A stretch of 64,000 bases of DNA from Caloenas nicobarica (taxonomy: Eukaryota): positions 133,631 to 197,630 of the forward strand of contig NC_088282.1 in the NCBI RefSeq assembly GCF_036013445.1, given 5' to 3'. Positions 29,446 through 33,647 of the stretch are shown piece after piece; within the stretch, counting starts at the first letter, position 1; the number at the start of each line of letters is the position of its first letter. A program made the translations under genes and the position numbers. Below the pieces are notes generated by a model. It ran no database searches. It was not told the DNA's origin and worked only from the letters and a program-made list of their open reading frames with translations.

Positions 29446-29639
29446 GTGAGCACAGAAGGGGACGGGGGTGGGGGGGACGGTCCCAAAGACCCAAAAAGGT
29501 CCCAAAACGGGGTTCGGGAAGCGGGAGAAGGGCCCAGGATGAGGCTCCACCAGCCCGAGGTGGATCCGGCACCACGAGAACGTCCCAAAATGGGGTTCAA
29601 CCACCACGGGAAGGTCCTAAAATGGGGTTTATCCACCGT

Positions 29640-31200
29640 GAGAAGCTCCTAAAATGAGTCTCAATCAACATTAGAAGGTTCTACGGTGGTTTCAACCACC
29701 ATGAGAAGGTTCTAAAATGGGGTTAAACCAACACTAGAAGGTTCCAAGGTGGTTCCAGCCCCATGAGAAGGTCCCAAAATGGGATTAAACCACCATGAGA
29801 AGGTTCTGAGGTGGTTTTTCCACCATGAAAAGGTCCTAAAATGGGGTTGAATCGACACTAGAAGGTTCTAAGGTGGTTCCACCGCCATGAAAAGGTCCTA
29901 AAATGGGATTAAACCACCATGAGAAGGTCCTAAAATGAGTCTCAACCAACACTAGAAGGTTCCAAGGTGGTTCCAGCCCCATGAGAAGGTCCCAAAATGG
30001 GATTAAACCCCCTTGAGAAGGTTCCAAGGTGGTTTTTCCACCTCGAGAAGGTCCTAAAATGGGGTTTATCCACCATGAGAAGTTCCTAAAATGGGATTAA
30101 ACCACCATGGGAAGGTTCTGAGGTGGTTTTTCCACCATGAAAAGGTCCTAAAATGGGGTTAAACCAACACTAGAAGGTTCCAAGATGGTTCCAGCCCCAT
30201 GAGAAGGTCCTAAAATGGGATTAAACCACCATGAGAAGGTCCTAAAATGAGTCTCAACCAACACTAGAAGGTTCCAAGGTGCTTCCACCACCATGAGAAG
30301 GTCCCAAAATGGGATTAAACCACCATGAGAAGGTTCTGAGGTGGTTTTTCCACCATGAAAAGGTCCTAAAATGGGGTTAAACCAACACTAGAAGGTTCTA
30401 AGGTGGTTCCACCACCATGAGAAGGTCCCAAAATGGGATTAAACCACCATGAGAAGGTCCTAAAATGAGTCTCAACCAACACTAGAAGGTTCCAAGGTGG
30501 TTCCAGCCCCATGAGAAGGTCCCAAAATGGGATTAAACCACCATGAGAAGGTTCCGAGGTGGTTTTTCCACCACGAGAAGGTCCTAAAATGGGGTTTATC
30601 CACCATGAGAAGTTCCTAAAATGGGATTAAACCACCATGAGAAGGTTCTGAGGTGGTTTTTCCACCATGAAAAGGTCCTGAAACGGGATTAAACCACCAT
30701 GAGAAGATCCTAAAATGAGTCTCAACCAACACTAGAAGGTTCCAAGGTGGTTCCACCACCATGAGAAGGTCCCAAAATGGGATTAAACCACCATGAGAAG
30801 GTTCCGAGGTGTTTTTTCCACCATGAAAAGGTCCTAAAATGGGGTTAAACCAACACTAGAAGGTTCTAAGGTGGTTCCACCACCATGAGAAGGTCCCAAA
30901 ATGGGATTAAACCCTCTTGAGAAGGTTCCAAGGTGGTTTTTCCACCTCGAGAAGGTCCTAAAATGGGGTTTATCCACCATGAGAAGTTCCTAAAATGGGA
31001 TTAAACCACCATGAGAAGGTTCTGAGGTGGTTTTTCCACCATGAAAAGGTCCTAAAATGGGGTTAAACCAACACTAGAAGGTTCCAAGATGGTTCCAGCC
31101 CCATGAGAAGGTCCTAAAATGGGATTAAACCACCATGAGAAGGTCCCAAAATGGGATTATGGGCTTAAACCCCCATGGGAAGGTCCCCAAACGGGGCTCA
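29640..31200. repeat. Satellite of 80 bp with a higher-order unit of about 160 bp, about 10 copies.
   Basis: ccaccatgagaaggtcctaaaatgggattaaaccaccatgagaaggttctgaggtggtttttccaccatgaaaaggtcctaaaatggggttaaaccaacactagaaggttccaaggtggttccagcc repeated. Confidence 0.9.
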
Positions 31201-31619
31201 ATCCCCCAGGAAGGCGCCAACGTGGGTTAGTGCTTCTCTATTGGCGGGGGGGAGCGTTTGACGCCCCCAAAAAGCCCCGAAATTCCCCCAAAACTGACCC
31301 CGAAACCTCCCGGGGTTGCCGGAAATTTCCCGGAACTCCCCAAAAATACCCAAAAAGACCCAAAACACCCCCAAAATAGCCCCAAAACCACCCCGAACAA
31401 GCCCGAAAACGGCCCCGAAATAACCCAACCGCCCCCCCAAAATTAAGCCAAACCAGCCCAAAATGAGCCCAAAAATTAGAGGGGGATATTTTGGGGGGTT
31501 TACGTCCCTATCTCAAGATTTTGGGGCTCAAAAGTGGAATTTTGGGGCGTTTCGTGTCATTATTTCAGCATTTTGGGGTCTCCGAGCCCCAAAAACCTCC
31601 GTTTTTCCCCCAATTTCAG

Positions 31620-33647
31620 GCGCGCCGGGACCAAGAATTTCCCCCCGTCGTTCATAACGAGGAAACGGGACAATTAGAGATTCAATTAACGAGCCCGCGG
31701 GGCCAATACGACCAGTATGACCAGTTCGACCAGTATGACCAGTACAACCAGTTCAACCCTGTAGGTGACACAGGGACCCGGGGGGGACGTTCCCGCCCCA
31801 AACCCCCAAATTCCGGCGATTTAGCCCCAAATTCCAGCAATTTAGCCCCAAATTCCCCCCGTTTTCCCCCCGATCCCTCCAGTTCCTCGCCCAGTTCCTC
31901 CCAGTTTCCTCCCAGTTCCTCCCAGTTTCCTCCCAGTTCCCACGTCCCCCCAAATTCCCCCGTTTCCCTCAATTTTCACCCCGATTTCCCCCCCAGTTCC
32001 CCCATTGATTCCCCCAGTTCTCCCAGTTCTGACCCCAATTTTCCCCCCAGTTTCCCCCCCATTAATTCCCCCAGTTCCCCCAGTTCCGACCCCAGTTCCA
32101 CCCCCAATTTCCCCTCCAGTTCCCCCATTAATTCCCCCATTTCTCCCCCAAATTCCTCTCCCAGTTCCCCCATTAACCCCCCCAGTTCCCCCAGTTTCTC
32201 CCCCGTTAATTCCCCCAGTTGCCCCATTAATCCCCCCGTTAATTGCTCCATTAATCCCCCCGGTTCCCCCCCAAATTTCCCCCCCAGTTCCCCCATTAAT
32301 CCTCCCAGTTCCCCCCCCAGTTCCCCCAGTTTCCCCCCCATTAATCCCCCCAGTTCCCCCATTAACCCCCCCAGTCCCCCCAGTTTCCCCCCCATTGATC
32401 CCCCCAGTTCCCCCATTAATCCCCCCAGTTTCCCCATTGATCCCCCCAGTTTCCCCCCCATTAATCCCCCCAGTTCCCCCATTAACCCCCCCAGTCCCCC
32501 CAGTTTCCCCCCCATTGATCCCCCCAGTTCCCCCATTAATCCCCCCAGTTTCCCCATTGATCCCCCCAGTTTCCCCCCCATTGATCCCCCCAGTTTCCCC
32601 CCCATTAATCCCCCCAGTTCCCCCATTAACCCCCCCAGTCCCCCCAGTTTCCTCCCCATTGATCCCCCCATTGATCCCCCCAGTTTCCCCATTAACCCTC
32701 CCATTGATCCCCCCAGTTCCCCCATTGATCCCCCCAGTTTCCCCCCCATTGATCCCCCCCTTGACCCCCCCGCGTTCCCCCCCATGCCCCGCCCCCTCCC
32801 CAAGCCCCGCCCCCCCGCCCTCCCCGCCCCTCTCCCATTGGCCGCCGCCCTGGCCGCCCTCTGGCTCCGCCCCTCCCTGCCCCTCCTCTTCCTCTTCCTG
32901 TTCCTCTTGCTCCTCCCCCGCGGGGGGCGTGGCCGGGCGGGGGGCGGGGCCGTGGGCGTGGCCTTGGCCTTGACCCTCCCGGCCCCGTTTTGGCGCTTCG
33001 GGGCCGTGACCTTGGCCTTGACCGGGGGGGTTTTGGGGCTCCTGGGGTTCCCCCCTCCCCGCGCTCGCGCTTACGCCCCCGTTTTCCTCTTGGCCGCCCA
33101 ATTTTTCCTCTTCCCGTGGCTCTTTTTGGCGCTTTATTTAGCCGGCTTGGGGGGCCGGGGGGTTTTGGGGGGCGCCGGGGGGCGGAACCGACTCCACCGC
33201 TGGTTATTCCGGGGGGTCCTCGCTTTACCCCCCCCGGTTTTCCGCCTCTTGTCCCGTTTGGGTTTCGTCAGCGAACGGCGATTTTTTCAATTTTTCCCCC
33301 GGGCTAAAAAAACGGGATTTCGGTCCCGTTTGCCCATCCCCCGCCGGGGACCCCCCCCGCCCCCCCGCCCCTCCCCCAACGCCTCTGGAGCCGCGTCCGG
33401 CGCTTCCTGGGGGGGAGGGGGGGGCGGGGGGGGGGGCGGGGGGGGGAACCCCCCAGCCGGATCCCCCGCCCCTCCCCCCGCCCCCCCCGAACCCCCCCGA
33501 GCGGGGGAGGGGGGGGGGGGAGGGGGGCGAAGGGGGGCGGGGGAGGGGGGAGGGGAACGGCCCCGCCCCCCCGCAAACCCTGGAGGTGACGCCGGCCCCT
33601 CCCCCCCACCCCCCCGCCGTGTTCTGGGGGAAAAATTGGGGAAATAG
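31620..33647 (+). CDS. TAOK2: Putative TAOK2 long terminal exon (isoform-1-like tail). It contains a proline-rich coding minisatellite and a multi-hydrophobic tail.
   Basis: One open frame runs from the acceptor cag at 31617-31619 to TAG at 33645-33647. The distal part reads LLFLFLFLLLLP...AVTLALTGGVLGLLGF...FFPRAKKTGFRSRLPIPRRGPP. This matches the human TAOK2 isoform-1 tail LLLLLLPLLAAQ...YPKTNKDGFRSRLPVPGPRRRNP. The proximal part FPPVVHNEETGQLEIQ is only weakly similar to human SSIIHRLPGSDNLYDD. An internal donor cct|gtaggt at 31761 could mark an alternative boundary. The coiled-coil exons that belong between here and 29445 were not found. Confidence 0.4.
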   Translation, partial: ARRDQEFPPVVHNEETGQLEIQLTSPRGQYDQYDQFDQYDQYNQFNPVGDTGTRGGRSRPKPPNSGDLAPNSSNLAPNSPRFPPDPSSSSPSSSQFPPSSSQFPPSSHVPPNSPVSLNFHPDFPPSSPIDSPSSPSSDPNFPPSFPPINSPSSPSSDPSSTPNFPSSSPINSPISPPNSSPSSPINPPSSPSFSPVNSPSCPINPPVNCSINPPGSPPNFPPSSPINPPSSPPSSPSFPPINPPSSPINPPSPPSFPPIDPPSSPINPPSFPIDPPSFPPINPPSSPINPPSPPSFPPIDPPSSPINPPSFPIDPPSFPPIDPPSFPPINPPSSPINPPSPPSFLPIDPPIDPPSFPINPPIDPPSSPIDPPSFPPIDPPLDPPAFPPMPRPLPKPRPPALPAPLPLAAALAALWLRPSLPLLFLFLFLLLLPRGGRGRAGGGAVGVALALTLPAPFWRFGAVTLALTGGVLGLLGFPPPRARAYAPVFLLAAQFFLFPWLFLALYLAGLGGRGVLGGAGGRNRLHRWLFRGVLALPPPVFRLLSRLGFVSERRFFQFFPRAKKTGFRSRLPIPRRGPPPPPRPSPNASGAASGASWGGGGGGGGGGGGNPPAGSPAPPPAPPEPPRAGEGGGGGGRRGAGEGGGERPRPPANPGGDAGPSPPPPRRVLGEKLGK
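31800..32780 (+). repeat. TAOK2: Proline-rich coding minisatellite of about 30 bp inside the open reading frame of the putative TAOK2 tail exon.
   Basis: Repeated ccccccagttcccccattaatcccccagtt encodes PPSSPINPPSFP-type peptides. Confidence 0.7.

Follow-up and report, generated by a model that had tools for sequence, protein, structure and literature searches.

The stretch of DNA analyzed here, 64,000 nucleotides of the Nicobar pigeon (Caloenas nicobarica) genome (contig NC_088282.1; hereafter, the window), contains the gene for the serine/threonine-protein kinase TAO2, TAOK2. TAOK2 is a much-studied, autism-linked 16p11.2 kinase. In the pigeon gene, the kinase domain, the serine-rich/acidic stretch and the hydrophobic tail of the alpha isoform can all be recognized, and the coiled coil that canonically lies between the latter two cannot. 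The locus probably does lack the coiled coil in truth and still encodes a functional kinase-plus-tail protein, and TAOK2 of this kind is most probably widespread in neognath birds and previously unreported.

Kinase exons and alpha tail of the pigeon gene

The top database match to our hand-built gene model is the 457-residue protein annotated by NCBI as "serine/threonine-protein kinase TAO2 [Caloenas nicobarica]" (P0001), and the best matches of the model in general are TAO2 proteins. All 457 residues of P0001 were placed at 100% identity on 13 exon blocks of the window, which is therefore the Nicobar pigeon TAOK2 locus; with split codons refined, all 12 introns of the gene are GT-AG. An earlier note, made from the letters of the DNA alone, had assigned the exons at 20408-28147 and 29266-29445 to TAOK2 and had started a long open frame at 31620, and these boundaries prove correct to the base against P0001. 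The assembly (bCalNic1.hap1) derives from HiFi reads with a mean length of 16 kb at ~70x, and its NCBI annotation used muscle RNA-seq and Iso-Seq (PMC13539444). For comparison, genomic loci were inspected in the pigeon, kiwi (Apteryx mantelli), gull, gecko, cormorant (Phalacrocorax carbo) and Vidua chalybeata; Poecile atricapillus and chicken (Gallus gallus) were compared as proteins.

The kinase domain is complete (Pfam Pkinase, E 6e-59, profile positions 4-263 of 263), its catalytic motifs, including GTPYWMAPE, are intact, and 440 codons across 12 exons are free of stops. Exon sizes of 24/34/15/33/38/30/32/27 codons are identical in pigeon, kiwi and gull, and this shared exon-intron structure indicates that the kinase part is not a retrocopy. 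The core of exon 11 is nearly identical between pigeon and cormorant.

At the other end of the gene, a profile of bird alpha tails matches the pigeon tail at E 6.5e-44. A tblastn search with a human query also aligns 32700-33371 with the human isoform-1 tail (35% over 242 residues, E 4e-18), a result that serves as a lead only. The tail core is 51-64% identical to those of cormorant, chickadee and kiwi, with 36 invariant positions, and within its hydrophobic block PWLF..LY..G is invariant in the same alignment. Compared among birds, mammals, caecilians and sharks, no part of the tail is better conserved than 33192-33341. The earlier note had the frame 31620-33647 end in the isoform-1 tail and had named GFRSRLPIP as its mark. 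The tail is real and the motif is present, but the true end lies at 33589, in another frame. One C added in the homopolymer runs that precede the C-terminal part rejoins the two frames and yields a read-through model of 1049 residues ending in PPPRKPWR. The frame of 33377-33589 scores 185, 114, 101 and 61 against the C-termini of cormorant, chickadee, chicken and mammal, and the other two frames score lower (119-126, 73-87, 55-56 and 35-36, respectively). The break between the frames may be a genuine frameshift or an error of HiFi reads in homopolymers.

In human TAOK2-alpha, six transmembrane helices (residues 941-1066) anchor the protein in the endoplasmic reticulum (ER), an amphipathic helix (1146-1162) confines it to subdomains of the ER, residues 1187-1235 bind microtubules, an SxIP motif binds EB1, and kinase activity regulates the tethering (PMC8699727). 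The pigeon has sequence counterparts of the ER anchor, amphipathic helix, microtubule-binding and SxIP parts, its hydrophobic block corresponding to the human transmembrane region. More generally, it shares with human TAOK2 isoform 1 (TAOK2-alpha, PSK1-alpha) the STE20-type kinase, the serine/acidic stretch, the hydrophobic block, the amphipathic segment, GFRSRLP, an SxIP motif within a basic tail rich in Pro and Arg, and the terminal PWR. It differs in being without the human coiled coil (residues ~450-745) and the segment that folds back over the kinase in the AlphaFold human model, in having a lineage-specific tandem-repeat spacer and no beta exons, and in its kinase, which is ~72% identical to the canonical one.

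Table 1. Features of the window, in order of position; all are given in window coordinates.
Feature	Position	Strand	Sequence and basis
MAZ zinc fingers	143-1619	+	Recognizable peptides
PAGR1 exons, upstream neighbor	11754..14809	-	Exon translations, taken to be PAGR1; conserved upstream of the cormorant gene too
TAOK2 exons 1-10, kinase domain and post-kinase segment	20408..28147	+	Exact match to P0001, GT-AG introns; exons 20408-20527, 20606-20677, 20757-20858, 21751-21796, 21881-21977, 23269-23382, 24013-24104, 24301-24394, 25062-25143, 27968-28147
TAOK2 exon 11, serine-rich/acidic	29266..29445	+	..TERSHWPPSASVSASSSSS..DDDDGDDDDDDDD..; phase 0/0; canonical homologue in kiwi and gull, SMESSHSVPSMSISASSQSSS..
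Intron 11	29446..31619	+	GT..AG borders; ~100 stop codons spread across three frames
Start of the long terminal open frame (NCBI exon 12), 47 codons	31620..31760	+	ARRDQEFPPVVHNEETGQLEIQLTSPRGQYDQYDQFDQYDQYNQFNP; acceptor ttcccccaatttcag before G
C-rich tandem repeat	31761..32789	+	Units CCCCCAGTT and CCCCCATTAAT/GAT; expected position of the coiled coil
Hydrophobic block of the alpha tail, ~115 residues	32832..33176	+	LPLAAALAALWL..LLFLFLFLLLL..PWLFLALYLAG; several Kyte-Doolittle segments; homologous to other tails
Amphipathic-helix-like segment	33192-33242	+	LHRWLFRGVLALPPPVF, followed by RLGFVSERRFFQFFPRAKKTGFRSRLPIP up to 33341
GFRSRLPIP	33315-33341	+
Frame discontinuity	33351..33376	+	C8/C7 homopolymer runs; one extra base rejoins the tail core with the C-terminus
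Conserved C-terminal tail	33377..33589	+	QRLWSRVRRF..EPPSRIPRPSPRPP..PPPRKPWR, in a frame shifted by one base; TGA at 33587-33589
SxIP motif SRIP	33455-33466	+	In the frame shifted relative to the tail core
PPPRKPWR	33563-33586	+	In the frame shifted relative to the tail core
Terminal exon of the NCBI 457-residue model, 17 codons	35445..35498	+	GPDAEPRAMSQWGARNG and stop; acceptor ..cccaacag before G; reached from the donor at 31761, tail skipped
CDIPT exons, downstream neighbor	40825..45697	+	tblastn with human CDIPT sequence; same strand as TAOK2
Fibrinogen-C-domain gene	46450-46845	-	Recognizable peptides
SRRM2 N-terminus (cwf21 domain)	58066-58374	+	Recognizable peptides

The missing coiled coil and what stands in its place

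The window is GC-rich and dense in tandem repeats, and its 64 kb contain no N. The coiled coil was not found in it by tblastn with human sequence or with kiwi and cuckoo database sequences, nor by a six-frame search, at the most sensitive setting, with a profile hidden Markov model that combines 93 coiled coils of canonical TAOK proteins; the absence, which the earlier note had already seen, extends to 29446-31619. The same profile finds no trace of the ~300-residue coiled coil (..SGYKRMRRQHQKQL.. to ..QQPKSLK) in the pigeon protein model. As a positive control, in kiwi, gull and gecko the profile recovers every one of the coiled-coil exons, with E values between 1e-18 and 1e-51. The exons of the beta isoform (SKELQIKKQF..LLNAYQSKIK..) were likewise not found in the window, whether by tblastn or with a profile of 61 sequences that matches the gecko at 1e-16 to 1e-46; in the gecko these exons lie downstream of the alpha tail. 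For coiled coil, tail and beta exons alike, our conclusions rest on database sequences, and the human query served as a lead only. In the favored reading, ~300 residues of coiled coil, encoded canonically by the larger share of exon 12, by exons 13 and 14 and by the 5' portion of exon 15, have been lost from the pigeon gene, as have all beta exons.

The intron after exon 11 is also present in kiwi, gull, cormorant and Vidua. In the pigeon it contains a satellite, confined within the window to 29570-31159, with a base unit of ~31 bp and periods of ~31/62/94/156/218/312/374 bp according to Tandem Repeats Finder (TRF), autocorrelation and motif counts. The earlier note had described this satellite with periods of 80/160 bp and had placed it where the coiled coil should be. 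The satellite is real, but its periods are others, and it sits in a conserved intron, so the coiled coil is to be expected after 31760 and not within the satellite. In the ancestral layout, seen in kiwi and gecko, the coiled coil begins in the exon after exon 11, and its last segment and the alpha tail share one open frame. Its place in the pigeon is therefore that of the C-rich repeat, 31761-32789.

The 47 codons annotated as exon 12 are followed at 31761 by a usable donor, GTAGGT. Judged by sequence, they may possibly correspond to the canonical ..HDNLYDDPYQPE.. (MQEGEHTV..DNLYDDPYQPE), which they weakly resemble; in that case they would straddle a canonical intron. Inside this exon, a 9-bp repeat at 31703-31752 encodes YDQ-YDQ-FDQ-YDQ-YNQ and may have grown out of the canonical LYDDPYQ motif; it would then be a case of coding microsatellite growth.

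The C-rich repeat itself has TRF periods of 12/21/33/45/57/66/120 bp, all multiples of three, and its strongest autocorrelation lags are multiples of three as well. The frame that it shares with exon 12 and the tail has 0 stops, versus 3 and 31 in the other frames, and 14 of 2000 dinucleotide shuffles are stop-free. If translated, it gives a Pro/Ser-rich spacer (..PPSSPINPPSFPPIDPPS..). As evidence of coding the stop-free frame is weak, as control introns are equally open. Kilobase-long open frames do occur in introns of this DNA, and its intronic and intergenic tandem repeats at 26000-27900, 28814-29264 and 33626-34188 run for hundreds of codons without a stop.

The annotated pigeon protein ends in the 17-codon exon far downstream. 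No counterpart of this exon was found in the cormorant, and in the pigeon it adjoins and resembles an 11-bp-based GACCCAATGGGG satellite at 35640-37985. The same satellite family also occurs between TAOK2 and CDIPT in the cormorant (L001, ~22044-23524).

The gene order of the window is MAZ, PAGR1, TAOK2, CDIPT, the fibrinogen-C-domain gene and SRRM2. PAGR1-TAOK2-CDIPT is common to pigeon and cormorant, and TAOK2 is followed by CDIPT in Vidua as well. The match to the human CDIPT query is a lead only; the call is backed by a gene with the Pfam domain CDP-OH_P_transf after TAOK2 in cormorant and Vidua. Because PAGR1 upstream and CDIPT downstream bound this gene, it is unlikely that coiled-coil exons belonging to it lie outside the window, as the earlier note had allowed. 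MAZ, PAGR1 and CDIPT, which are 16p11.2 genes in human, stand in an order different from the human one. The neighbors in the window as a whole are human chromosome 16p genes, reordered, with pigeon TAOK2 in the position of human MVP. MAZ, PAGR1 and CDIPT were not found in the 10-kb flanks of the kiwi and gecko TAOK2 loci. Comparisons of the flanks alone between species by tblastx were dominated by shared satellites.

TAOK2 with and without the coiled coil in other vertebrates

Canonical sauropsid TAOK2, as represented by kiwi, emu, ostrich, gecko, cuckoo and gull, has the same exon structure as the pigeon gene through exon 11 and a homologous alpha tail. Unlike the pigeon gene, it keeps four coiled-coil exons, and its kinase is 84-99% identical to that of other vertebrates. 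Beta exons, absent from the pigeon window, are seen in emu, cuckoo and gecko. In the kiwi, none were found within 10 kb downstream of TAOK2. A 200-N gap follows directly after the kiwi tail (L002 27136-27335), and farther downstream (L002 32937-35696) lies an open frame that, judged by eye, is perforin-like, with a MACPF end and a C2-like part. The gull's canonical gene comes from an unplaced scaffold of 19 kb and is cut off after exon 14.

Among the birds compared, then, the coiled coil is kept in ratites, cuckoo and gull and is absent in pigeon, two songbirds and chicken. The suggestion of a shortened TAOK2 in the pigeon lineage, one of three offered by the earlier note, is thus supported, and the pattern is wider than that lineage, as it recurs in Vidua, Poecile and chicken and probably in the cormorant. 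The clearest case is Vidua, whose TAO2-like isoform X1 (XP_053789224, 864 residues) is encoded on a gap-free contig with the same layout: exon 11, a 1.8-kb intron and, as in the pigeon, one long terminal exon (1545 bp), which combines low-complexity repeats with the tail and is followed by CDIPT. NCBI annotates five isoforms of this gene, which suggests transcript support. Poecile isoform X2 (888 residues) and the chicken protein A0A8V0X2E6 (1025 residues) consist of kinase, acidic stretch, lineage-specific repeats and tail, and the coiled-coil profile has no match in the Poecile, chicken or cormorant proteins. These "TAO2-like" models of other neognaths share with the pigeon the domain order without coiled coil and an accelerated kinase, and those of Vidua and cormorant also share the CDIPT neighbor. 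They differ from the pigeon in two ways. First, their annotations carry the tail, which that of the pigeon omits. Second, the spacers are unrelated, being of a QNPDFPT type in songbirds, an HVTHTPH type in chicken and a PPSSPIN type in pigeon, with a short Pro-rich linker in cormorant.

Songbird annotation contains short products as well. Isoforms P0139 (Vidua) and P0137 (Haemorhous) read through the exon-11 donor (..GTPPQ continuing into VPERPRAERSGKIPKFPE..) and end without the tail. The names that NCBI gives to products of the songbird gene include TAO1-like, TAO3-like, dst1-like and "uncharacterized."

The cormorant probably shares the layout, and we count it as weak support. In its 789-residue model, exon 12 is without its coiled-coil part on the assembled side of a 200-N gap; the annotated "intron" spans this gap, and the model may be incomplete. 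Owing to this gap, the cormorant locus cannot be said to leave no room for coiled-coil exons. Outside birds, the rays Hypanus sabinus (XP_059809295) and Narcine bancroftii (XP_069779258; P0132, P0133, P0152) have "TAO2-like" proteins with a kinase, an acidic/low-complexity region, a hydrophobic tail and an SRIP..W(I/R)P end, in which the coiled-coil profile finds no match. Rays are only distantly related to birds, and their hydrophobic region greatly exceeds the pigeon's in size; sharks (P0125, P0127) carry both coiled coil and tail. Full-text literature searches for TAOK2 with birds, avian or chicken returned nothing on a coiled-coil-less form or on these models.

Across a range that runs from gull and kiwi to coelacanth, the kinase domain of canonical TAOK2 stays at 94-99% identity. 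In birds without the coiled coil it is unusually divergent, at 62-79% identity both to canonical domains and between the birds themselves; in the pigeon, changes have occurred at 119 of 358 sites at which the outgroups do not otherwise vary. The cuckoo, with its coiled coil kept, is intermediate at 84-89%. Strong acceleration of the kinase was found only in coiled-coil-less species.

Origin and meaning of the coiled-coil-less layout

Since songbirds and chicken show the same layout, the coiled coil is most likely truly absent in the pigeon, as opposed to having been dropped from the assembly. Translation would then proceed from the acceptor before 31620 through the repeat, or across it by in-frame splicing, into the tail, and the product would have ~1050 residues, or ~700 with the repeat spliced out. 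In such a protein, a disordered Pro/Ser spacer would join the kinase to an ER-anchored, microtubule-binding tail. Use of the donor at 31761 may also produce a short soluble isoform, equal to the NCBI 457-residue model, and the choice between read-through and splicing at this site would resemble the mammalian choice between alpha and beta. The sequences themselves establish that coiled coil and beta exons are absent, that kinase and tail are conserved and that other neognath birds share the layout; inclusion of the tail in the transcript, translation of the spacer, a homopolymer error as the cause of the frame break, and tethering of ER and microtubules are inferred.

Several observations weigh against this interpretation. 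The cuckoo and gull keep the coiled coil, and a single loss therefore cannot explain its distribution; the pigeon, too, may have a second, canonical TAOK2 elsewhere in its genome. The flanks of the kiwi gene are unlike those of the pigeon gene within 10 kb. In the cormorant, the 200-N gap (L001 19721-19920, OY997631.1) falls exactly between exon 12 and the tail exon. Within the pigeon gene, the sole NCBI model, for which muscle RNA-seq and Iso-Seq were available, omits the tail and ends at the 35445 exon; the tail is split by the frame break at 33351-33376; and the open repeat frame is weak coding evidence, as the intron at 26000-27900 of the same gene is open for 633 codons.

Whichever accepted phylogeny of birds is used, this distribution calls for several separate losses or for one ancient duplication after which different lineages kept different copies. 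The former has, in our estimate, a less than even probability. A single-copy TAOK2 would have lost the coiled coil and the beta isoform independently in pigeons, songbirds and galliforms, probably in cormorants and perhaps in rays, each time acquiring a different satellite-like tandem repeat as an in-frame disordered spacer and a kinase that then evolved several times faster.

The competing proposal, which we consider unlikely though it survives best of the alternatives, is that the pigeon locus is an old coiled-coil-less paralogue ("TAO2-like") that predates the neognath divergence. Canonical TAOK2, with coiled coil and beta exons, would then exist, or have existed, elsewhere, to be seen in cuckoo and gull and lost or unassembled in pigeon, songbirds and chicken. 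A single duplication would account for the distribution more parsimoniously than would three or four independent deletions, given that chicken (Galloanserae) and several Neoaves are without the coiled coil and cuckoo and gull have it. Moreover, the coiled-coil-less genes that can be checked adjoin CDIPT, whereas within 10 kb of the canonical gene in kiwi the flanks are different, the canonical gull gene is on an unplaced scaffold, and rays too carry a coiled-coil-less TAO2-like gene. Yet no species among the database matches shows both forms. A derived kinase residue is common to all four coiled-coil-less lineages at one site only, and pairwise sharing, at 4-13 sites, is about the chance overlap of 100-140 changes in 360 sites, which leaves no place for a long shared stem. 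In addition, two derived features of the cormorant, MPWG at the N-terminus and PPDGL.APP where exon 12 begins, recur in canonical cuckoo and gull, and the spacers differ completely between lineages. A neighbor-joining tree of the kinase was not used to decide orthology, as it ordered lineages by rate only, with long-branch behavior, and blastn between introns of different species was too noisy to separate orthology from paralogy.

It is improbable that the NCBI model is complete, that is, that the pigeon makes only a 457-residue soluble kinase and the tail frame is untranscribed or a non-coding relic. This model is the sole annotated product of a pipeline that had muscle RNA-seq and Iso-Seq at hand, its donor at 31761 and acceptor at 35445 are both good, the tail contains a frame break, and short isoforms are annotated in Vidua and Haemorhous as well. 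Muscle, though, was the only tissue sampled, and the 17-codon terminal exon, absent in the cormorant, looks like a satellite unit. The tail, in contrast, is 50-64% identical to those of distant birds, down to its SxIP motif and the precise place of its stop, in DNA whose neutral parts cannot be aligned. The birds compared separated from the pigeon more than 60 million years ago.

A false join within the C-rich repeats at 31761-32789 that dropped coiled-coil exons, akin to the collapsed assembly that the earlier note had considered, appears very improbable. In its favor, repeats crowd this region to an extreme degree, the cormorant assembly is interrupted at just this point, the gull fragment ends after exon 14, and the pigeon tail contains a probable homopolymer error. 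Against this, the window has no gap, and its repeat blocks of 1-1.6 kb are short relative to 16-kb HiFi reads at ~70x (PMC13539444). Independent assemblies agree (the gap-free Vidua contig, Poecile and chicken), the coiled-coil part of cormorant exon 12 is already gone on the assembled side of the gap, and the accelerated kinase is confined to coiled-coil-less species. Finally, that the gene is a decaying pseudogene is hardly credible, for despite its many changed kinase sites, its lost regulatory region and the frame break in its tail, it retains 12 stop-free exons, canonical splice sites, intact catalytic motifs and a conserved tail, and NCBI annotates it as protein-coding.

The division of labor between the TAOK2 coiled coil, the alpha tail with its ER-microtubule tethering and the beta isoform is still being worked out. 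The beta isoform is reported to act in translation control (PMC11014455; bioRxiv 10.1101/2022.08.22.504812). If many birds do carry only an alpha-tailed TAOK2 of the coiled-coil-less kind, a kinase-plus-tail unit can be maintained by selection without the coiled coil, whose functions are presumably covered by TAOK1, a highly conserved protein, 94-100% identical among the birds compared. It would also follow that satellite DNA on bird microchromosomes can be recruited as coding spacer, and that current annotations truncate or mislabel the gene, as the 457-residue "TAO2" of the pigeon and the "TAO2-like," "TAO1-like," "TAO3-like" and "dst1-like" proteins of other birds. Scans of such DNA call for caution in any case, since long open frames occur in plain introns and are no evidence of coding. 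If repeated loss is the true history, birds would provide natural separation-of-function variants of TAOK2, in which an ER-anchored, microtubule-binding kinase operates without the functions that depend on the coiled coil.

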